DNA of 44,532 nt from Escherichia phage vB_EcoP-CC1. Position 1 is the first letter of the stretch, and the number at the start of each line of letters is the position of its first letter. The position numbers were made by a program, and so were the translations under genes. Shown here piece after piece: positions 22,401 through 42,026 of the stretch. Location: the sequence record OX457022, one strand, 5' to 3'. The notes under the pieces are model-generated. The model was not told the DNA's origin and searched no databases. It was given only the letters and a program-made list of their open reading frames with translations.

Positions 22401-22508
22401 CTTCGTAGAGAAGAGCTGATGTGGTGGTGCATGAAGGCACAGAATGCTTGGATTGAATCTATTGAGGGGAGGCTGGCGAAATTAGAAGATAAACTCAAGG
22501 AGGTGTAA
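19422..22508 (+). CDS. tail fibre/tailspike with T7 gp17-like N-terminal attachment domain
   Basis: 1028 aa; position of T7 gene 17 and N-terminal region loosely resembles recalled gp17 attachment domain (no motif checked); C-terminal CDARLKTDARELTDAEKSAF resembles S74 intramolecular-chaperone motif; probable depolymerase body. Confidence 0.8.
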   Translation: MMSYTYTDHVANGSQVTFPFRFAGRDKAYISATDVQVGFVEAGTWLPATGWTLSGTNQITFLTPPTEGKQIRIRRIVDKINPYAYFERGNVLDINSLNNSFIKNLQVSQEILDGFFPEGFYFKTDLDMGGHKIINLHEGSESGDAVNYDQFKELSDRVNEIESDLTGLSHRTVPMYYIATGGESRWEIGHWTFDAAILFINGIFQNQNLGAFTISNNGFNFAEPLQKGDEVYALVGSRIAAPDEYVTISDLKDPDKAWRLIGRKYPFATDGTFMSKVVHDVDYSNIFIGASGLSQGFCIVDTPQGARMFFHQPIPSTNKVRFVETTFNPEGDNENPSVISFSQELDDIGHQTVCGVYEAGGVRLYTLSADEKSYYIIDWLGNNTSNAHMRKVQIPTEGIYSKDLFVSVGMSEDTKTLVFHATTNTQAFGNKDDARAIYLFDRKTLDSTSTRGLKRRFEVGAPAAPDMVFQGVACDDRFLYIYQGYNGVLLSHKISVFTLSGEHVRDIPVDSVRVKYGERMYGDETLGYPVLQEPEGLAMYKGKLYMLCMDFWYKNASVVTFAGRTFATRKSSAFSGYSPLQASYWTPTNLIPPTGAPEYNKTATYSCSNATKLSKAIVSLEIDDGTGFPASVGCSLPESSASVYLNNRAMNMAIGPNENFQFGVFHQNLQSYKNLLQLNRENPNTDGSAAVWRLFGGAFTDDIQNERFVQIKHRLNPTQDAMELRADVDLTSGGGINLYSMNDSASPGRVRLYCTDGYSYWSALLSPVSPSFHPDQDKTLNLGTANNRWNLVHCQGIRIISNDELQKQVFLETTRKKGALQISTSGNLGVWDSSAGTYVVATRPDGTGFSQVEMSFKGDVFPEINNTYNLGRENKAWANAYFQNAPTVVCDARLKTDARELTDAEKSAFLEISKLPAVWQWLAKLEVEGEDARLHSGCTVQAAISVMEKHGLDWTKYSAFCYDKWDAKEAVYDIVDGKAILVEEAVEAGDRYRLRREELMWWCMKAQNAWIESIEGRLAKLEDKLKEV

Positions 22509-22702
22509 TGATAAACTCCGAACTGGTAGATAATGGTGTGAAGCTGGCGCCACCTGCATTAGTCTCAGGTGGGTACTTCCTCGGTATCAGTTGGGACAAT
22601 TTGGTACTGATAGCAACATTCATTTATACAGTGTTGCAGATTGGCGATTGGTTCTATACTAAATATACAATATGGAGGAATAAGCATGAGCGTGCACAAT
22701 AA
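22508..22702 (+). CDS. class II holin (T7 gp17.5-like)
   Basis: 64 aa; segment FIYTVLQIGDWFY resembles T7 holin YTVVQIGAKV; hydrophobic core plus basic C-terminus; RBS AAGGAGG. Confidence 0.7.
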   Translation: MINSELVDNGVKLAPPALVSGGYFLGISWDNLVLIATFIYTVLQIGDWFYTKYTIWRNKHERAQ

Positions 22703-22985
22703 ACATGCAGCCACAGAGGATGAAGTAGGCATCCTTCATGGCGCTATTACGAAGATGTTTAATAAGAAAGCACAGGCTATACTGGACACTATAGAAGAAG
22801 ACCCTGATTCTGCTATGCACTTAGTGTCAGGTAAGGATATTGGAGCCATGTGTAAGTGGGTTTTAGATAATGGCATTACTGCAACCCCTGCTGCACAGCA
22901 GGAAGAATCTAAGTTGTCTAAGCGTCTCAAGGCTATCCGAGAGGCGTCCAGTGGTAAGATCATTCAGTTTACTAAGGAGGATTAA
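22686..22985 (+). CDS. terminase small subunit (gp18-like)
   Basis: 99 aa from ATG 22686 (GGAGGA upstream); immediately precedes terminase large subunit. Confidence 0.55.
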   Translation: MSVHNKHAATEDEVGILHGAITKMFNKKAQAILDTIEEDPDSAMHLVSGKDIGAMCKWVLDNGITATPAAQQEESKLSKRLKAIREASSGKIIQFTKED

Positions 22986-24880
22986 TGGCTAAGGCAAGAG
23001 AATCACAAGCGGAGGCTCTTGCCAGATGGGAGATGCTACACGAGTTACAGCAGACCTTCCCTTATACGGCAGAAGGTTTGCTTCTCTTTGCTGATACAGT
23101 TATTCATAATTTAATTGCAGGTAGTCCTCATCTGATTCGTATGCAGGCAGACATCTTGAAGTTCCTATTCTATGGGCACAAGTATCGCCTCATCGAAGCG
23201 CCCCGTGGTATCGCTAAAACTACGCTGGCAGCAATCTATACGGTGTTCCGTATCATTCATGAGCCTCATAAGCGTATCATGGTTGTATCCCAAAACGCCA
23301 AGCGAGCAGAGGAAATTGCAGGTTGGGTGGTCAAAATCTTCCGAGGATTGGACTTCCTTGAGTTTATGCTACCGGATATATATGCTGGCGACCGTGCATC
23401 CGTCAAGGCATTTGAGATTCACTACACGTTACGCGGCAGCGATAAGTCGCCTTCTGTATCCTGTTACTCTATCGAAGCAGGAATGCAGGGTGCTCGTGCT
23501 GACATCATTCTAGCAGATGACGTTGAATCTATGCAGAATGCGCGTACAGCAGCAGGTCGTGCATTACTTGAGGAACTGACAAAGGAGTTTGAATCTATCA
23601 ACCAGTTTGGTGATATCATCTACCTTGGTACACCTCAGAACGTCAACTCAATCTATAATAACCTTCCGGCTCGTGGTTATTCCGTGCGCATCTGGACTGC
23701 TCGCTATCCTTCGGTAGAACAGGAGCAATGCTATGGTGATTTCCTTGCACCTATGATTGTGCAAGATATGAAGGATAACCCAGCATTGCGAACAGGCTAT
23801 GGTCTGGATGGCAACAGCGGCGCTCCTTGTGCGCCTGAAATGTACGATGATGATGTCCTGATTGAGAAGGAAATCTCACAGGGTGCTGCTAAATTCCAGC
23901 TTCAGTTCATGCTTAACACTCGCATGATGGATGCTGACAGATACCCATTGCGCCTAAACAATCTAATCTTCACCTCATTTGGTACAGAGGAAGTCCCTGT
24001 GATGCCTACGTGGAGTAATGATTCCATTAACATCATTGGGGATGCACCTAAGTATGGCAACAAGCCTACAGATTTCATGTATCGACCTGTGGCACGTCCA
24101 TACGAATGGGGTGCTGTTACACGCAAGATTATGTATATTGACCCCGCTGGTGGCGGTAAGAACGGAGATGAGACTGGTGTAGCCATCGTATTCCTGCACG
24201 GCACATTCATTTATGTGTATCAGTGCTTTGGTGTACCGGGCGGATACCGAGAATCTTCCCTGAATCGCATTGTGCAGGCCGCAAAGCAGGCAGGGGTTAA
24301 AGAGGTATTCATAGAGAAAAACTTTGGTCATGGCGCGTTTGAGGCGGTAATTAAGCCATACTTTGAACGAGAGTGGCCTGTGACACTTGAAGAGGATTAC
24401 GCAACTGGTCAGAAAGAACTCCGCATCATTGAGACGCTAGAGCCATTGATGACCGCGCATAGGCTCATCTTCAATGCGGAAATGGTTAAGTCAGATTTCG
24501 CTTCAGTACAGAACTACCCGCTTGAACTGCGGATGTCTTATAGTCTGTTCCATCAAATGTCGAACATCACTATTGAGAAGAACAGCCTTAGGCATGATGA
24601 CCGCTTAGACGCTCTGTATGGCGCTGTGCGTCAATTAACTTCCCAGATAGACTATGACGAGGTTACTCGAATTAATCGCCTCAGAGCGCAGGAGATGCGC
24701 GATTATATACAGGCGATGAATACACCTAAACTTCGTCGGGCTATGCTGTACGGCGATTATGGTGATGAGCGAAGAACAACCAACACCTCCTTAGCGATGC
24801 AGCAGCGGGTTTACGGTCAGAATTGGAGGAGCCGCTCTGGGTCTAGAAATACACTTTCCTCAAGGATTTCAAGGATTTAG
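22985..24880 (+). CDS. terminase large subunit
   Basis: 631 aa, position and size of T7 gp19; no nucleotide-binding motif could be confirmed by eye. Confidence 0.85.
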   Translation: MAKARESQAEALARWEMLHELQQTFPYTAEGLLLFADTVIHNLIAGSPHLIRMQADILKFLFYGHKYRLIEAPRGIAKTTLAAIYTVFRIIHEPHKRIMVVSQNAKRAEEIAGWVVKIFRGLDFLEFMLPDIYAGDRASVKAFEIHYTLRGSDKSPSVSCYSIEAGMQGARADIILADDVESMQNARTAAGRALLEELTKEFESINQFGDIIYLGTPQNVNSIYNNLPARGYSVRIWTARYPSVEQEQCYGDFLAPMIVQDMKDNPALRTGYGLDGNSGAPCAPEMYDDDVLIEKEISQGAAKFQLQFMLNTRMMDADRYPLRLNNLIFTSFGTEEVPVMPTWSNDSINIIGDAPKYGNKPTDFMYRPVARPYEWGAVTRKIMYIDPAGGGKNGDETGVAIVFLHGTFIYVYQCFGVPGGYRESSLNRIVQAAKQAGVKEVFIEKNFGHGAFEAVIKPYFEREWPVTLEEDYATGQKELRIIETLEPLMTAHRLIFNAEMVKSDFASVQNYPLELRMSYSLFHQMSNITIEKNSLRHDDRLDALYGAVRQLTSQIDYDEVTRINRLRAQEMRDYIQAMNTPKLRRAMLYGDYGDERRTTNTSLAMQQRVYGQNWRSRSGSRNTLSSRISRI

Positions 24881-24881
24881 T

Positions 24882-24903
24882 ATTTACTGGACACTATAGG
24901 AGG
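24882..24903 (+). promoter_or_regulatory. phage RNAP promoter class I (ATTTACTGGACACTATAGGAGG), +1 G at 24899
   Basis: Family consensus immediately after terminase stop. Confidence 0.8.
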
Positions 24904-24920
24904 AAGACCAAGAGAGTAAA

Positions 24921-24963
24921 AGGAATATTATAGGATAATATAGGATTACCTAGGTTATATAGG
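24921..24963. repeat. periodic AGG-containing array (TAGG at 24931, 24941, 24951, 24960)
   Basis: AT-rich; 9-10 bp spacing; followed by hairpin GGTGTAC-TCCT-GTACACC (24978-24995). Confidence 0.8.
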
Positions 24964-25037
24964 TGTACCTTAGTATGGGTGTACTCCTGTACACCTATTC
25001 TTACTTGCTATTTACTTATACGTATAAGGAGTATTAG

Positions 25038-25319
25038 ATGGCTAATGATTATAGTAATCAGCCCTTAACTGGTCGCTATGACCGTAAACAGATTACACCA
25101 ACTAGTGAAGCATTAATGCTCCCTGTTGTTACAGAGGAGTCTATTAAGAAGAAAGCCAATGTTATCAATGATGCAACCAAATCTGGTAAACAGAAAGCAG
25201 CAATGGTGTGTCGTCCTGTAGGTGGCACTCTTGAGATTGCCATTGCTACTGGTAGCAAAGAGGATGCAGATTGGTTGTCTGTTAAAATGGATGGCGTTGG
25301 TTTTATTACACCGGCTTAA
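25038..25319 (+). CDS. hypothetical protein, paralog 1 of 3 (SGKQK...IAIATGS motif)
   Basis: 93 aa; strong RBS AAGGAG; shares LSGKQKxAMV...IAIAxGS...DxW block with next two ORFs. Confidence 0.6.
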   Translation: MANDYSNQPLTGRYDRKQITPTSEALMLPVVTEESIKKKANVINDATKSGKQKAAMVCRPVGGTLEIAIATGSKEDADWLSVKMDGVGFITPA

Positions 25320-25336
25320 TAAAAGGAGAAGATAAT

Positions 25337-25624
25337 ATGTCTAAGTATGGCGATGCAGGTACGACTACTGGTCAGGCTTTTCGTGTAAAAGCAGTACAAA
25401 CTATTGCAACTGCAATCCCTATGCCTATCGTGGCAGAAGCTGACCTTAAAAAGAAAGATCATCCAATTAATATTGAACACCTATCTGGTAAGCAGAAAGG
25501 TGCTATGGTGGTTGTAGATAAAGGAGATAATAGCCTTTATATTGCTATTGCACGTGGTTCTGCACCAACTGACCAGTGGGATGTAACTACTATGGAAGCT
25601 GTACCTGTAACACCAGGAGCTTAA
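25337..25624 (+). CDS. hypothetical protein, paralog 2 of 3
   Basis: 95 aa; RBS AAAGGAGA; same conserved block. Confidence 0.6.
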   Translation: MSKYGDAGTTTGQAFRVKAVQTIATAIPMPIVAEADLKKKDHPINIEHLSGKQKGAMVVVDKGDNSLYIAIARGSAPTDQWDVTTMEAVPVTPGA

Positions 25625-25625
25625 T

Positions 25626-26315
25626 ATGCTGGGAGTAACAGGACAACGCAATAAGAATGTAGCCACCAAAGTAGTGGCTGATTTAGCTACTGCTGCTACT
25701 GTCGAGGAATTACGAGACACACATAACTCTATTAACCGTGCTGACCTTTCTGGTAAACAAGAAGGTTCTGTTGTTCTTGTTAAGAAAGAGGATGGCAACT
25801 ATTCTATCTTTGTAGCAACAGGTAGCAAGCCTACTGATGTTTGGAAAGAGTTGTCTCCAACAATACCAGAGCAAGAGATGCCTGCTGAATATATTGATAT
25901 GGTTGATATTCAAATTCATCAAGACTCTGCAAGTAACTTACGTATGGATTCTTCTCGCACGAGCTTAATACAAACACCAATGTGGGATACTGAAGGTGAA
26001 TTGCTATTCCGTAATACCCTGAGCGCAACATGTTCTTGTACCATTCTTGCTGACGGTGCATCTGGTGTTCGTCAGGATTTTAATTTTAAGATTAATGGAA
26101 TCTTAGAGCAAGAAGAGCAGTATTATGACATTGACACTCTTATGTGCTCTATTCATTCTGCAACAACAACTAATGGTCTTACACTGTGTATGCCAGATGT
26201 TAAGAGCGCAAAGACCAATAAGATGGTAGTAAAGGTCGACACTATGCAGTCATTAACAATGAGTTTTGATCTTAACTTCCTTGTTGAATGGACGTCACCT
26301 ACGAGGTTACTATAA
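25626..26315 (+). CDS. hypothetical protein, paralog 3 of 3 with ~150-aa C-terminal extension
   Basis: 229 aa; N-terminal 80 aa carries the shared block (LSGKQEGSVVLV...IFVATGSKPTDVW). Confidence 0.6.
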   Translation: MLGVTGQRNKNVATKVVADLATAATVEELRDTHNSINRADLSGKQEGSVVLVKKEDGNYSIFVATGSKPTDVWKELSPTIPEQEMPAEYIDMVDIQIHQDSASNLRMDSSRTSLIQTPMWDTEGELLFRNTLSATCSCTILADGASGVRQDFNFKINGILEQEEQYYDIDTLMCSIHSATTTNGLTLCMPDVKSAKTNKMVVKVDTMQSLTMSFDLNFLVEWTSPTRLL

Positions 26316-26659
26316 TGCTAAACGAATACTTCAAGCGTAAAGAATTTGCTTGCCGTTGTGGGTGCGGTACATCCACTGTTGATGCTGAGTTACTACAGGT
26401 AGTAACAGATGTGCGTGAGCACTTTGGTGCTCCTGTGGTTATTACTTCTGGTCATCGTTGCGCCAAGCACAATGCTAATGTAGGTAGAGCTAAGAACTCC
26501 ATGCATCTTACTGGTAAGGCTGCTGACATTAAGGTCACTGGTGTTAGCCCAATGGAGGTACGTGCGTACCTATGCAATAAGTACACTGATAAGTATGGCA
26601 TTGGTGCTTATCCTACTTTTACACATATCGACGTTAGAGGTAACAAAGCACGATGGTAG
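26315..26659 (+). CDS. endolysin, peptidase M15-like (zinc D-Ala-D-Ala carboxypeptidase family)
   Basis: 114 aa from ATG 26315 (TAATG overlap with upstream stop); motif SGHRCAKHNANVGRAKNSMHLTGKAADI resembles M15 His/Asp zinc-binding signature. Confidence 0.6.
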   Translation: MLNEYFKRKEFACRCGCGTSTVDAELLQVVTDVREHFGAPVVITSGHRCAKHNANVGRAKNSMHLTGKAADIKVTGVSPMEVRAYLCNKYTDKYGIGAYPTFTHIDVRGNKARW

Positions 26660-26767
26660 GTTGTGTTGCATGGTGTGAACGCATGGTTGCTAAGGCTTCA
26701 GAGGAAGGCAACTATGCAGATTGGCAGAACTATTCGACTTTATTAGCTCAATGGAAAGGGAGGTGCA

Positions 26768-26917
26768 ATGAAAAAGCTGTTTAAGTCTAAGAAGGTTGTA
26801 GGTGCACTAGTTGCACTAGCAATTGCCCTTGTTTCTGTAGGACTTGGTGTAGACCTTGGTTCTGGCACTGAGGGGTCTGTGACAGATGTAGTTTGCCAAG
26901 TAATTACTTGTGAATAA
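26768..26917 (+). CDS. small membrane protein (49 aa)
   Basis: Below ORF-track cutoff; GGGAGG RBS; basic N-terminus then hydrophobic span VVGALVALAIALVSVGLGV. Confidence 0.4.
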   Translation: MKKLFKSKKVVGALVALAIALVSVGLGVDLGSGTEGSVTDVVCQVITCE

Positions 26918-27131
26918 ATTTCTTGAAGCACTTGCAGGTCTTATTGGCCTGCTTGTTGCAGCTAAGAAGAAACAGGAAGAGAAGGAGGCACAAAGTGAAG
27001 CGAATCATGTTGGTGATGACCCTGCTGATTGGTTCGCTAATCACTTCCGGGTGTCAGCAGGCGTTACCAGAGAAGAAGGGTGTGAAGCCGCTGAAGCCGA
27101 CGCTGACGGCAGTTTACGAAGTGGACGATAA
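26910..27131 (+). CDS. putative i-spanin-like protein (Rz-like), short
   Basis: 73 aa; N-terminal hydrophobic segment FLEALAGLIGLLVAA then charged region; shorter than typical Rz. Confidence 0.35.
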   Translation: MNKFLEALAGLIGLLVAAKKKQEEKEAQSEANHVGDDPADWFANHFRVSAGVTREEGCEAAEADADGSLRSGR

Positions 27132-27204
27132 GGTCTGCTTCAGTAAGACTGACGCTACACAATTAGGTTTGTATATTCTTTCGCTAGAACGCGGGTATAA
27201 TTAA
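26923..27204 (+). CDS. putative o-spanin lipoprotein (Rz1-like)
   Basis: Arg-rich N-terminus, hydrophobic segment and lipobox-like LITSGC (functional start may be M at 27004), comparable to T7 gp18.7 ATISGC; overlaps previous ORF in another frame. Confidence 0.5.
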   Translation: MKHLQVLLACLLQLRRNRKRRRHKVKRIMLVMTLLIGSLITSGCQQALPEKKGVKPLKPTLTAVYEVDDKVCFSKTDATQLGLYILSLERGYN

Positions 27205-27233
27205 TACATATCTTTATGTATCAATGTCCTACG

Positions 27234-27255
27234 ATTTACTGGACACTATAGAAGG
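27234..27255 (+). promoter_or_regulatory. phage RNAP promoter class I (ATTTACTGGACACTATAGAAGG), +1 G at 27251
   Basis: Family consensus 83 nt upstream of second tailspike ATG. Confidence 0.8.
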
Positions 27256-27333
27256 AGAGATAGTGCCGTTCATTTGAGCGGCCTATTACTAGCCAATCTT
27301 CATGGTGAGGGTTGGGAAGTAATAGGAGATAAC

Positions 27334-39309: not shown

Positions 39310-41842
39310 TTGGAAGAAGGAAGCAGAAGGCCGCATCCTCGTCATGGACGCAGAAGCTAAAGGTCTGCTTGATGCTATCCGCTACGGTCATCGTGAAGAT
39401 GTACACATCATTTGCTGCATGGACTTGCTCACCACTGAGGAGTTCCTCTTCTTCGACCCATATGAGATGCGTGACCCTGAAGCAAGAGAACGCCTGAAGG
39501 AGTGGGAAGGCCATCAAGATGGTGACTTGGTTGACGGTGTTAACTTCCTGAAACACTGTGAAGCTATCGTGTCACAGAACTTCCTAGGGTATGACGGCCT
39601 CCTTTTTGAGAAAGCCTTCCCTGATATCTGGAAAGGTTTTAACTATACCGAAAGGCGCGGCAAGGGCAGACTCCGTGCCGACCTGTGTCCTGTGCGAGTC
39701 ATGGACACGCTGGTGATGAGCCGCCTGTTAAACCCCGATAGACGCCTTCCTCCGCAAGCATATGCCAAAGGTATGGGTAACGTCGCCCCTCATTCAATTG
39801 AGGCGCACGGCATCCGTATAGGACGCTATAAGCCGGAGAATGAGGACTGGTCTAAACTAACTGACCACATGGTTCACCGTGTCCGCGAGGACGTGGCAAT
39901 CGGTCGTGACCTTTTCCTGTGGCTGTACAATGGAGAGTGGACGGAGCATAAACGCCGTGGCGTGAATAAACGCACTGGCCTAGGCATTGAGACAGCCTTC
40001 CACATGGAGTCTATTGTGGCGCTGGAGATGAGCCGTCAGGCAGAGCGTGGATTCCGTCTGGATATTGACAAAGCACTAGCGCGATGCGAAGAACTGGACG
40101 CTAAGATTGATGAGACAGTCGCAGCGTTCCGCCCTCACATGCCTATGCGTATCAAGTCTAAACCTTTTAAACCGGAAGAAAAGAATGAAGTATGCCAACG
40201 CGCAAATGAGTATGGAGCTAGCAACAATATACCTACTGTCCTTGACCCCTCACACTTTCTTCATGCCGAGAGACGAGGAGATCGCAAGACAGTATGGAGT
40301 GTCACTACTAAGTCTGGTGATTGGTCGGCTAGCGTCAAGAAAGACTTTCCTCACCTTAGAGGAAACCGTAATGACACGCCAAGCATCAAGTGGATTGGCG
40401 CTTACTCGCCTGTTACTTTCGAAGAGATTCCCTTGGGTAACAGGGATACAGTTAAGCAAGTGCTCTATGATTATGGATGGAAAGGTGTTGAATTTAACGA
40501 TACCGAGCAAGCGCATCTCGATGAGCATGGCGTATTACCCAAACCTTGGAGTGGAAAGATAAATGAGAAATCCCTTACTTTATGGCAAGAAAGAGCCGCA
40601 CGTGAAGGTAAAACAGTACCAGATTGGTGCTTGGGTATCGCTGCATGGTACATACTCGTATCCCGTCGTGGTCAGATCCTCAACCGTGGTGACGTTGAAG
40701 CCTTCGATCAGAAGGGGGCGTGGCCTTCGCAAGCTGGTGTACGAAAGTGTCGCGGCCTTATACCTGTAGCCTTTAACAAGGAATTAGGAATCAATGCGCA
40801 ACAATACTACGAGAGGTATGGGTATTGGCCTACGTCTGACAAGGATGACGGAGAGTGGCGTGTGCCAGCTATTGCTATTAGTATTGGCACTTCTACGTTC
40901 CGTATGCGTCATCGCAATGTGGTTAATATTCCTGCCCGTGGCTTGTATCCTTTACGTGATTTATTCATAGCAGGTAAAGGTAAGCTAATCCTTGGTTGTG
41001 ATGGTGCAGGTCTTGAACTACGTGTACTTTCTCACTTCATGAATGACCCTGAGTACCAAGATATTGTACTGCATGGCGATATACATACTCATAACCAGAT
41101 GAAGGCGGGTCTTCCTAAGCGTGATATGGCGAAGACATTTATATATGCCTTCCTTTACGGCTCTGGTATAGCTAACCTTGCAGCAGTGTGCGGTGTTACT
41201 GAGGAAGAAATGAAGGAAGTTGTGGCAAGATTCGAGATTGAATTACCATCCCTTGCACGTCTTCGTGAGAATGTTATCGCACAAGGCAACAAGTTTGGAT
41301 ACTTACAAGCACCTGACGGGCATTGGGGTCGCATCCGTATGTCTGGTGGAGAACTTAAAGAGCACACTATGCTTAATGTATTACTCCAAATGACTGGCTC
41401 TTTGTGTATGAAATACGCATTGGTCAAAGCGTTTGCAGTGATGCGCAAGGAAGGTGTGGCCTTAGATAGTATGGGACACCCTTGTGGTGTAGCTAACGTG
41501 CACGATGAAATCCAGATGGAAGTACCTGAAGAAGAGGTATTGTATCTTAACTACGACCTACCTTTCACCTTAGAGGGGTTTGAAACAGAGAAGGCTGCTG
41601 TGAAAGCAGTATTCGATGCAGAGGAGAAACGTGTTCATGTGGATTCTGAAGGACGTATGTGGTCTGCTGCAAATCTCATTAGTGTTGATGCTGCTGCTGG
41701 TGTACTTCATTGCCAGCGTCGTTATCACCGCGCAGGGCATATCATTGCCGACGCCATGACTTGGGCTGGTCAGTATCTGAAGATGCGTTGCCCGATGGCA
41801 GGCGAGTATAAGATTGGCGCAAGCTGGAAGGAAACGCACTAG
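39296..41842 (+). CDS. DNA polymerase (family A, T7 gp5-like)
   Basis: 848 aa from ATG 39296 (ORF track 39269); polymerase-type motifs incl. HDEIQMEV; position after primase-helicase. Confidence 0.9.
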   Translation: MKTIDWKKEAEGRILVMDAEAKGLLDAIRYGHREDVHIICCMDLLTTEEFLFFDPYEMRDPEARERLKEWEGHQDGDLVDGVNFLKHCEAIVSQNFLGYDGLLFEKAFPDIWKGFNYTERRGKGRLRADLCPVRVMDTLVMSRLLNPDRRLPPQAYAKGMGNVAPHSIEAHGIRIGRYKPENEDWSKLTDHMVHRVREDVAIGRDLFLWLYNGEWTEHKRRGVNKRTGLGIETAFHMESIVALEMSRQAERGFRLDIDKALARCEELDAKIDETVAAFRPHMPMRIKSKPFKPEEKNEVCQRANEYGASNNIPTVLDPSHFLHAERRGDRKTVWSVTTKSGDWSASVKKDFPHLRGNRNDTPSIKWIGAYSPVTFEEIPLGNRDTVKQVLYDYGWKGVEFNDTEQAHLDEHGVLPKPWSGKINEKSLTLWQERAAREGKTVPDWCLGIAAWYILVSRRGQILNRGDVEAFDQKGAWPSQAGVRKCRGLIPVAFNKELGINAQQYYERYGYWPTSDKDDGEWRVPAIAISIGTSTFRMRHRNVVNIPARGLYPLRDLFIAGKGKLILGCDGAGLELRVLSHFMNDPEYQDIVLHGDIHTHNQMKAGLPKRDMAKTFIYAFLYGSGIANLAAVCGVTEEEMKEVVARFEIELPSLARLRENVIAQGNKFGYLQAPDGHWGRIRMSGGELKEHTMLNVLLQMTGSLCMKYALVKAFAVMRKEGVALDSMGHPCGVANVHDEIQMEVPEEEVLYLNYDLPFTLEGFETEKAAVKAVFDAEEKRVHVDSEGRMWSAANLISVDAAAGVLHCQRRYHRAGHIIADAMTWAGQYLKMRCPMAGEYKIGASWKETH

Positions 41843-42026
41843 TGGATAGATTAGATATTGTTTGCTTGTTCTTTACCTTCTTTCTTGTCTTTCTTATGCT
41901 TGCTTGTTATGGAAGTATTCAGGTAAATATACCTGATGAAGAGGAAGGATACGACTGAGTTATACTCAAGGTCACTTACGAGTGGCCTTTATGAATAACT
42001 TACTCCTACTTATTTTGTCTAACATG

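Follow-up and report, generated by a model that had tools for sequence, protein, structure and literature searches.

gpX and an overlapped lipoprotein as a candidate outer-membrane-disruption pair in the lysis region of the SP6-like phage vB_EcoP-CC1

The lysis region of Escherichia phage vB_EcoP-CC1 (sequence record OX457022; the window analyzed here is the whole stretch of 44,532 nucleotides, to which all positions refer) closes with two overlapping genes. One is a 73-codon open reading frame (ORF), here called gpX (26910–27131), which most records leave unannotated, and the other encodes a 69-residue outer-membrane lipoprotein (26995–27204); both follow the gene of p49 (26768–26917), a 49-residue inner-membrane protein, and all genes in the region are on the + strand. 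We found that gpX is conserved as a coding frame and that it, and not p49, accompanies the lipoprotein in very distant phages. We propose that gpX and the lipoprotein form a non-canonical two-gene module for outer-membrane disruption, a reading to which, taken with the holin-gated mechanism outlined below, we assign a probability of about 0.4. Three points appear to be new: the skipped overlapping ORF is under selection over a core of about 48 residues; gpX, not the 49-residue "i-spanin", is the constant companion of the lipoprotein across unrelated phages; and the gpX family is without the membrane anchor that defines i-spanins. The lysis region itself and the o-spanin label of the lipoprotein were already known. 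The SP6, K1-5 and K1E-type phages are classic models as well as phage-therapy candidates.

The 73-codon frame is under selection

gpX matches phrog_9219 ("unknown function") with an E value of 1.3e-29. Its GTG start lies within TGTGAATAA, the 8 nt by which it overlaps the p49 gene; in the relatives the corresponding TGTGA[A/G]TAA also holds the p49 stop. An in-frame stop at 26901–26903 fixes the start of gpX, and since this start lies inside the stop signal of p49, translation of gpX is coupled to that of the membrane protein encoded upstream, which is p49 here and a holin in distant cassettes. No slippery site was seen when the sequence of the p49/gpX junction was read. In 22 relatives with 71 to 90% nucleotide identity every ORF of the region was open with identical starts and stops, gpX being open in all 22 with its GTG start unchanged.

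Selection was quantified by the ratio of nonsynonymous to synonymous substitution rates (dN/dS, pairwise Nei-Gojobori), for which the sequence pairs are phylogenetically non-independent, though the contrast between frames is large. Where gpX is the sole coding frame (26919–26993), dN/dS was 0.22 in the gpX frame and 2.1 and 3.5 in the other two, and the variable states at the three codon positions of the gpX-only segment numbered 17/6/35. Residues 29–48 of gpX, encoded over the lipoprotein signal peptide, gave values of 0.15 for gpX and 0.55 for the lipoprotein; over residues 49–73 the gpX frame reached 0.88 and the lipoprotein frame 0.48. The constrained core of gpX thus comprises residues 1–48 (26910–27053). 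The tail (residues 49–73) is unconstrained and free-running, and the length varies from 61 to 73 residues in the relatives. Judged by these substitution patterns, gpX is a real, selected gene whose functional core measures about 48 residues.

A first-pass annotation of the sequence had listed a holin, the terminase genes terS and terL, an M15 peptidase and three small ORFs, all of which were found where it had placed them, and the ORF coordinates confirm that the three small ORFs lie in three different frames. It had also voiced the concern that a frameshift error at 26900–26930 might have split an Rz of normal length. An artefact of this kind, or a 73-residue chance ORF lying over the lipoprotein gene, would fit with the lack of annotation in most records and with a GTG start that has no Shine-Dalgarno sequence. 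The identical layout in 22/22 relatives, the 109 phage records that match the lysis region, the start fixed by the in-frame stop and the purifying selection specific to the gpX frame all speak against it. A profile built from close homologs was further run against 1.84 billion representatives and retrieved, at E ≤ 0.001, 49 clusters defined at the 50% identity level. All full-length members of this family measured 49–95 residues, three longer matches were partial only, and no full-length Rz was present among the 49 clusters; homologs down to about 30% identity included stand-alone, non-overlapped genes. Frameshift and misassembly are ruled out by the layout and signals kept in all relatives and by the frame-specific selection, and an artefact of either sort has next to no probability.

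The lipoprotein and its reach into the periplasm

The lipoprotein gene (26995–27204, start as annotated in the record; phrog_8971, "Rz-like spanin", E 8.6e-37) is in the +1 frame relative to gpX and overlaps it by 137 nt. Its Shine-Dalgarno sequence AAGGAGG (26982–26988) falls within gpX codons 25–27, and the arrangement A[AG]GGAGG-N6-GTG/ATG (26982–26997) was invariant in 23 aligned sequences. The first-pass annotation had begun this Rz1-like ORF at the TTG at 26923. That codon is TAG in seven and TGG in five of the 23 sequences, and a 93-residue lipoprotein starting there is ruled out by the stop in seven relatives; the invariant signal together with these stops places the gene at 26995–27204, with GTG 26995 as the real start. 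The same ORF does contain a valid lipobox (pattern assessed by eye). Nor are the three small ORFs mutually overlapping, as had been claimed: p49 and the lipoprotein gene do not overlap, and only the p49/gpX (8 nt) and gpX/lipoprotein (137 nt) overlaps exist. The description of the 73-residue ORF and the lipoprotein gene as an "overlapped, not embedded" pair in the Rz/Rz1 slot was correct, and the pairing is kept in very distant phages.

The signal peptide (residues 1–19) reads MKRIMLVMTLLIGSLITSG|CQQ, with the lipobox ITSG|C and the Cys20 codon at 27052–27054. The residue at +2 is Gln, and a PROSITE PS51257-type pattern fits by eye. The lipobox Cys was present in nearly all of 47 aligned homologs, with no Asp at +2 in the rows displayed (about half). 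As expected of an o-spanin, the protein has a signal peptidase II lipobox without Asp at +2, and it is small when mature (50 residues) and encoded at the end of the lysis cluster, a position that is constant in all cassettes. The proline-rich, unstructured periplasmic chain of the lambda Rz1 type is absent. In the AlphaFold2 (AF2) model, computed from 47 sequences with a mean predicted local distance difference test (pLDDT) score of 82.8, the mature part consists of a flexible P/K-rich tether followed by a beta-beta-alpha mini-domain (about 27088–27201, pLDDT 94–96) that ends in ...LGLYILSLERGYN. The lipoprotein also has a conserved free Cys, and dN/dS in its non-overlapped part was 0.09.

A geometric estimate from the model, with a tether of about 12 residues and a domain of 2–3 nm, gave a reach of about 7 nm from the outer membrane. 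Adding either the approximately 30 constrained gpX residues that follow its helix or the 21-residue tail of p49 brings the combined reach to about 10–12 nm at most. The periplasm of E. coli is about 20–25 nm wide, and a pre-formed bridge of the lambda type is therefore physically implausible with gpX or p49 as the partner, a doubt also noted by the CPT curators.

gpX, not p49, accompanies the lipoprotein

Four small genes lie 3' of the endolysin gene, namely a 43-residue ORF, p49, gpX and the lipoprotein gene. All four recur together in SP6, Proteus Pm5460, ECBP5, a Klebsiella Molineuxvirinae phage, an Edwardsiella phage and the "Ralstonia" phage Reminis. In a hidden Markov model (HMM) scan of all fetched loci, the lipoprotein was present in every gpX-bearing locus examined. 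The scan included 26 distant IMG/VR viral contigs (30–54% identity), retrieved by the gpX motif and alignment pattern alone; the lipoprotein was detected in 26/26, whereas p49 gave no significant match in any. Here, too, the two genes are overlapped, the lipoprotein being read in a different frame from gpX (+1 where coordinates were checked) and its match starting 7–90 nt after that of gpX. Salicola phage CGphi29 has an M23-type endolysin, a holin-like protein, a 71-residue gpX and an overlapped lipoprotein, and no p49. The temperate Vibrio phages X29 and PVP-XSN, which account for three loci (X29 was fetched twice), also have no p49; here a stand-alone 58-residue gpX is preceded by amidase and holin-like genes, and about 550 nt, with a gene on the opposite strand, separate it from the lipoprotein gene that follows. 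The pair adjoins endolysin and holin-type genes in nearly all loci. The endolysins around it vary (M15_3, VanY-like, GH108, GH24, amidase), and so do the holin families, which indicates that gpX does not track a particular holin.

p49 follows a different distribution. In VP4-type phages it is accompanied by a small lipoprotein of unrelated sequence in the T7 Rz/Rz1 slot, between terS and terL, and no gpX is present; a p49 homolog is found with a tiny lipoprotein of this VP4-linked type in locus L043, and alone in a Klebsiella lineage. In three Klebsiella phages (K44PH129C1, pKP-M186-2.1 and vB_KpnP_HY; records OY978837.1 for K44PH129C1, locus L125, 4107–4400, and also OP413828.1 and PV369459.1) a deletion of about 240 nt has removed exactly gpX and the lipoprotein gene, leaving p49 and the downstream promoter in place, and the closest relatives of these three phages retain both genes. 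The complete K44PH129C1 genome contains p49 (E 2e-16), and neither a gpX or lipoprotein homolog nor a credible lipobox ORF was found in it. If the lipoprotein is taken as the criterion, the three isolates would be "spaninless" SP6-like phages. Taken together, the distributions indicate that gpX, and not p49, is co-inherited with the lipoprotein across very distant phages and that p49 is evolutionarily independent. The co-occurrence thus favors the pairing of the 73-residue ORF with the lipoprotein, as first annotated, over the curated assignment of p49 as i-spanin.

Canonical i-spanins were also sought near the distant cassettes and rejected: ORFs with a transmembrane domain (TMD) and a coiled coil were inconsistent, most being N-out/C-in or with a C-terminal TMD (positive-inside rule, by eye). 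A second lipoprotein family (C-x-V-x-IVKDS..., 38–73 residues) was observed beside p49 homologs in VP4-like and podophage contigs (L043, 1029–1145; L041, 1648–1869). In L043 the tiny lipoprotein is encoded upstream of the endolysin, and the p49 homolog is without both Cys residues.

Protein features of gpX and p49

gpX consists, in this order, of an amphipathic to hydrophobic helix, a charged helix, the motif DPADWFANHF and a polar low-complexity tail. In the AF2 model the helices span residues 3–29 and 38–45 and the tail is disordered; the motif, in the form DPxxWFxxHF, is near-invariant in the family. Hydrophobicity and charge were surveyed in 62 diverse members, an apolar run being defined as a stretch without D, E, K, R, H, N or Q. 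The longest run was 9 residues at the median and 16 at most, and none reached 17. Positions 4, 5, 7, 8, 11, 12, 14, 15 and 18 are hydrophobic in 74–97% of the members and positions 3, 6, 9/10, 13 and 16/17 tolerate charge, which corresponds to a heptad-like amphipathic helix; many members carry D, R, K or E within it. K and R averaged 0.59 before the helix versus 2.7 in the ten residues after it. The median net charge is −1 for the core and −2 for the whole protein.

The gpX of the window has an apolar run of 12 residues and a Kyte-Doolittle maximum (19 residues) of 1.26, to be compared with 2.63 for lambda Rz and 1.35 for T7 gp18.5, which is a genuine i-spanin. The apolar runs of p49, lambda Rz and Era103 Rz measure 19 residues and that of T7 gp18.5 15. 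Among the SP6-like phages, Gly and Ala occupy the polar side of the gpX helix, which gives 10–13 apolar residues, and it is this feature that makes the gpX of the window look like a membrane protein. Across the family as a whole gpX has no TMD, the SP6-like subgroup alone being borderline.

The 73-residue ORF had been described as Rz-like, which holds for its position, with a gene that adjoins and overlaps that of the o-spanin candidate in the lysis cluster. It does not hold for the protein: neither an N-terminal type II TMD nor a long, charged coiled-coil periplasmic domain (AF2, constraint, family lengths) was found, and no homology to a described Rz or LysB family was detectable. Sequence searches of Pfam, NCBIfam and PDB returned no relative of gpX or of the lipoprotein, and we found no experiment on genes of either family in the literature. 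A profile comparison (hhalign) with the Rz of Era103, a relative that has an Rz of normal length (120 residues) in the same slot, gave a probability of 0.4%; pairwise BLASTP gave a weak match to the TMD end and juxtamembrane region of this Rz (13/33 identities, E 0.002).

One further family member was of a different build. P0201, a metagenomic protein of 95 residues, starts with approximately 42 N-terminal residues of a holin with two TMDs and continues in frame with gpX, beginning near gpX residue 13. If this fusion is natural, it would place the charged helix and DPxxWF motif of gpX on the cytoplasmic side; otherwise it could be a deletion artefact.

p49 (phrog_4712) is a bitopic inner-membrane protein according to its hydropathy, in agreement with the first-pass annotation. 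A basic N-terminus (MKKLFKSKK, 5 K in the first 9 residues) precedes a 19-residue apolar run with a Kyte-Doolittle maximum (19 residues) of 2.64, and dN/dS in its own unique segment was 0.15. The N-in/C-out TMD of an i-spanin is thus present. The periplasmic tail has 21 residues, DLGSGTEGSVTDVVCQVITCE, with a conserved CxxxxC and no charged character, in place of a long helical or charged domain, and the association of p49 with an o-spanin is not constant. Elsewhere in the window there was no credible candidate for a second lipoprotein or for an i-spanin with TMD and coiled coil, a lipobox-like ORF of 38 residues (41842–41958), outside the lysis cluster, being the one further match. In the lysis and late region no other credible TMD ORF was seen that could serve as i-spanin, the sole other ORF of high hydropathy lying inside the endolysin gene.

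Database labels and the published census

The labels in current use disagree. PHROGs, like RefSeq, has p49 as "holin" (phrog_4712), and it lists gpX under "unknown function" and the lipoprotein as "Rz-like spanin"; the latter is named "O-spanin" in UniRef and by CPT. LL11 and Premi, as annotated by CPT, have p49 as i-spanin and no feature for gpX. The SP6 RefSeq record NC_004831.2 (L036, 802–1020) has gpX as gp48. In the updated SP6 GenBank record AY288927.2 (L044, 864–1061) the ORF in the gpX frame (39607–39804) is labeled "o-spanin", which is a mislabel, and the real lipoprotein gene (about 39671–39880) is unannotated. In the spanin census of Kongari 2018 (PMC6139136) the 49-residue protein of K1-5, K1E and SP6 is listed as a "separated i-spanin", with the remarks "Too small?", "only 20 pp residues" and "not that highly charged", and "Too short" for the pair, in Table S1; the gpX ortholog of UAB_Phi78 is listed as an "overlapped i-spanin". 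The K1-5/K1E/SP6 "separated spanins" and the UAB_Phi78 "overlapped spanins" are the same genes as those of the window; in K1-5 the 49-residue protein is 96% and the 69-residue lipoprotein about 86% identical. In the census, sister phages thus have different, non-homologous genes as i-spanin, and both solutions are flagged as too small or too short. Beyond the census, we examined selection on gpX and its distribution outside the group, in which gpX and not p49 tracks the lipoprotein.

Proposed mechanism and alternative assignments

In the sequence of events that we consider the best explanation, the T7-type holin (22508–22702) would open the inner membrane, and the cytoplasmic M15 endolysin would then degrade the wall. 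The outer membrane would be broken by gpX, through its core of about 48 residues, and the 69-residue lipoprotein. gpX, its synthesis coupled to that of the upstream membrane protein, would wait in or at the cytoplasm and cross with the endolysin through the holin lesions, so that it reaches the periplasm only once the holin has fired. Its DPxxWFxxHF helix would dock on the beta-beta-alpha domain of the lipoprotein just under the outer membrane, after which the hydrophobic helix of gpX could destabilize or bridge the membranes. p49 would be a separate inner-membrane lysis protein and not an obligate partner of the lipoprotein. The holin-gated model is favored by the finding that most gpX members are not Sec-insertable and by a charge pattern that predicts a cytoplasmic C-terminal part. 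The parts of this proposal differ in strength. A functional partnership of gpX with the lipoprotein in breaking the outer membrane is probable, both this role and the physical interaction being inferred. The complete holin-gated version is tentative and falls somewhat short of even odds. The DPxxWFxxHF helix and the beta-beta-alpha domain, as the most conserved elements of the two proteins, may bind each other.

Several observations weigh against this explanation. The gpX helix of the SP6-like phages is more uniformly hydrophobic and could be a short anchor like the 15-residue run of T7 gp18.5, and the weak pairwise match to Era103 Rz hints at descent from a true i-spanin. p49 has a spanin-like N-in/C-out TMD and a periplasmic Cys pair, and in VP4 its homolog and a lipoprotein fill the T7 Rz/Rz1 slot. 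Phages without gpX and the lipoprotein are viable. Overlap alone leads to joint loss, so that the co-inheritance is in part physical linkage, and this linkage is broken in only three loci from the two Vibrio phages. Finally, relatives of the ECBP5/KBNP1315 type have a Sec-exported endolysin, for which the authors argue that the holin is a pinholin (PMC4640515), and a pinholin could not let gpX pass.

On the first-pass reading, shared by the CPT dataset for UAB_Phi78, gpX might be a true miniature i-spanin, anchored N-in/C-out by its short N-terminal helix and paired with the lipoprotein as in P2 LysB/LysC, only shorter. The overlapped architecture in the Rz/Rz1 slot, the listing of the UAB_Phi78 homolog as an overlapped i-spanin (Kongari 2018, PMC6139136) and the charged helical region that follows the hydrophobic part (AF2 helix 3–29) are what one would expect of such a protein. 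The weak local similarity to the Era103 Rz TMD and juxtamembrane region points the same way, the TMD of T7 gp18.5 is likewise short (15 residues), and the unconstrained extreme C-terminus agrees with reports on other overlapped i-spanins. We nevertheless consider a miniature i-spanin unlikely, as there is no family-wide TMD (apolar run median 9, never 17, with D, R, K or E inside the helix in many members), the K/R distribution of 0.59 before and 2.7 after the helix is the reverse of that of a type II anchor, the profile comparison with Era103 Rz gave 0.4% with no Pfam Rz match, and the combined periplasmic reach is at most about 10–12 nm. The curated view instead makes p49 the i-spanin and the lipoprotein the o-spanin of a "separated" pair, gpX being an accessory, for instance a holin-associated regulator, or irrelevant to outer-membrane disruption. 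It can draw on the robust N-in/C-out TMD of p49, on its CxxxxC together with the free Cys of the lipoprotein, which is reminiscent of the disulfide-linked Rz/Rz1 dimers, and on the VP4-like phages, where a p49 homolog and a lipoprotein occupy the T7 gp18.5/18.7 slot. An accessory role would suit the translational coupling of gpX to the holin in distant cassettes and the one natural in-frame holin-gpX fusion (P0201), and the view is followed by database annotations (CPT, LL11, Premi, SP6 records). However, p49 is missing from all non-Autographiviridae cassettes with the lipoprotein (26/26 plus Salicola and Vibrio) and persists where the lipoprotein has been deleted. Its uncharged tail of 21 residues drew the curators' own "Too small?" and "Too short", and gpX always stands beside the lipoprotein and co-varies with no holin family. 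In our judgment the curated assignment is improbable as well.

A role outside lysis would be very improbable. The lipoprotein, with gpX, could have an envelope-modifying or exclusion function, such as receptor blocking or protection from debris like T5 Llp; in PVP-XSN and X29 it stands alone beside an integrase gene, a typical moron position, and in the SP6-like phages it is encoded directly upstream of the tailspike gene. The viability of natural deletion mutants and a beta-beta-alpha fold unlike the proline-rich, unstructured Rz1 would fit such a function. Nearly all 26 distant contigs nevertheless have the pair at the end of an endolysin/holin lysis cluster, phages whose receptor-binding proteins are unrelated share the lipoprotein, no alternative spanin candidate was seen in these genomes, and in X29 gpX still directly follows the amidase and holin-like genes.

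If the proposed pair of gpX and the lipoprotein works without a periplasm-spanning complex, a wall-restrained pre-formed bridge is not the sole two-component solution to outer-membrane disruption, and automated spanin finders that require a TMD miss a whole family (49 clusters in a strict search). If gpX turned out to be a short-anchored i-spanin, it would set a new lower size limit for spanins. A more far-reaching proposal, which we regard as doubtful, is that gpX and the lipoprotein represent a distinct, widespread class of two-component disruptors, neither spanin nor disruptin, in which the lipoprotein, acting like a receptor, is pre-positioned beneath the outer membrane, and gpX, a small amphipathic effector without signal sequence, remains cytoplasmic and meets it only when the holin has opened the inner membrane. 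The final lysis step would in that case be gated by compartmentation and not by the mesh of the peptidoglycan, and the "i-spanin" label on the 49-residue protein of SP6/K1-5-type genomes would be wrong.

Comparison with known outer-membrane disruptors

Like P2 LysB/LysC and lambda Rz/Rz1, the embedded prototype, the genes of gpX and the lipoprotein form the final pair in a lysis cluster. P2 LysB/LysC is similar also in that a small outer-membrane lipoprotein is encoded downstream, from a +1 frame start inside the upstream gene, and extends past the end of that gene. In contrast to both systems, gpX has no family-wide TMD or long coiled coil and a core of only about 48 residues, and it has no sequence relation to the Rz and LysB families. 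The lipoprotein has a folded beta-beta-alpha domain where lambda Rz1 has a Pro-rich unstructured chain, and unlike that of the lambda spanins the combined reach estimated here appears too short for a pre-formed periplasm-spanning complex.

The VP4/ICP3 mini pair, a 47-residue TMD protein and a 65-residue lipoprotein, sits between terS and terL, the T7 Rz/Rz1 place. The 47-residue protein is a p49 homolog (GVDLxG...CxxxxC); the lipoprotein, however, is unrelated in sequence to that of the window, and there is no gpX-like ORF. With the T1 u-spanin gp11 the lipoprotein shares the position of an outer-membrane lipoprotein gene that ends the lysis cluster. A u-spanin needs a C-terminal TMD, whereas the lipoprotein ends in an amphipathic helix (...LGLYILSLERGYN); the apolar stretch of this helix (residues 51–65) is too short for a TMD, and an assignment as u-spanin was ruled out.

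The phiKT disruptin gp28 (bioRxiv 10.1101/515445), a helical, membrane-active protein of 56 residues without signal sequence that replaces spanins, resembles gpX as a small helical protein without signal sequence encoded in the lysis cluster. By analogy it may serve as a precedent for a small, helical, signal-less outer-membrane disruptor. gp28, which works alone and is without homologs, carries a strong positive charge, whereas gpX is slightly acidic, lipoprotein-paired and a member of a broad family; with its net charge of −1 (core) or −2 (whole protein) and the lipoprotein always beside it, gpX was ruled out as a disruptin.

Context of the lysis region

A 1-kb test region was 100% identical to OX638290.1 (Escherichia phage vB_EcoP-CC2, Vectrevirus, SP6/K1-5-like, Autographiviridae), relative to which the window is rotated. 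The cluster is the conserved late lysis region of SP6-like (Molineuxvirinae) phages, already sequenced and ordinary for the group. The split lysis module described in the first-pass annotation was recovered: its holin is of the T7 type and stands where T7 has it, and its M15 endolysin follows the terminase. The holin (gp17.5-like, 64 residues, 22508–22702) matched PF10746 (E 7.8e-26; 90 bits versus a cut-off of 25.4) and phrog_920 "holin" (E 2.8e-25). Its start overlaps the stop of a 1028-residue tail-fiber gene, and it is sited between this gene and terS, the T7 gene-17.5 position. The endolysin (Peptidase_M15_3, 114 residues, 26315–26659) matched PF08291 (E 3.1e-32) and phrog_894 "endolysin"; the longest ORF begins at 26288 and the start annotated in the record is 26315. 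No signal sequence or signal-arrest-release (SAR) domain was seen in it by eye. That it would not be a T7-type amidase was borne out, tblastn finding no homolog of the T7 amidase gp3.5, nor of T7 gp18.5, in the window.

The first of the four small genes (26653–26784, phrog_1312, E 1.3e-17) encodes a soluble, Cys-containing protein of 43 residues (CxxWC...WKGR; MVGCVAWCERMV...WKGRCNEKAV) and overlaps the endolysin gene at its 5' end and the p49 gene at its 3' end. Its variable states per codon position (26/19/48) suggest a real gene, and homologs occur in Era103 (after Rz1), ECBP5, an Edwardsiella phage and Reminis (PF26839/DUF8272). All four small genes show substitution patterns of the coding type. 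Between terL and the endolysin gene lie three tandem paralogous ORFs of 93, 95 and 229 residues (25038–25319, 25337–25624 and 25626–26315) with a common N-terminal module of about 90 residues (phrog_2725, phrog_32357). They are labeled "acetyl-CoA acetyltransferase" in many records; they have no Pfam match, and the label therefore looks like a propagated misannotation.

A search of the window for SP6-type promoter cores gave 11 matches versus 0.01 expected by chance. One core, GACACTATAGGAG (24890–24902, + strand), lies directly 3' of terL and is likely where transcription of the endolysin and small genes begins. Another promoter, ATTTACTGGACACTATAGAAG (27234–27254, core at 27242, + strand), lies ahead of the tailspike gene (27274/27334–28857) and marks the downstream end of the lysis cluster. 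With promoters after terL and before the tailspike gene, the block 25038–27204 looks like a single late transcription unit. A further one of the 11 cores lies inside the terS coding region (22785–22797), about 200 nt 5' of terL. Directly 3' of the lipoprotein stop and 5' of the tailspike promoter there is an AT-rich inverted repeat, ATACATA-TCTT-TATGTAT (27204–27221), which may be a processing or termination signal; a similar repeat is present at the equivalent place in a Klebsiella deletion phage (L042).

Two of the related records deserve correction or comment. In OR594181.1 (Escherichia phage vB_EcoM_SHAK7704) the region matching 26280–27280 is annotated "similar to RNA polymerase", an annotation error, and OR594179.1 is classed as Kayfunavirus despite 86% identity to the Vectrevirus lysis region. 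Outside the lysis cluster, a 38-residue ORF (41842–41958) has a strongly hydrophobic N-terminus, a lipobox-like LMLA|C (MDRLDIVCLFFTFFLVFLMLACYGSIQVNIPDEEEGYD) and an AAGG Shine-Dalgarno-like match upstream, and may encode a small membrane protein or lipoprotein.

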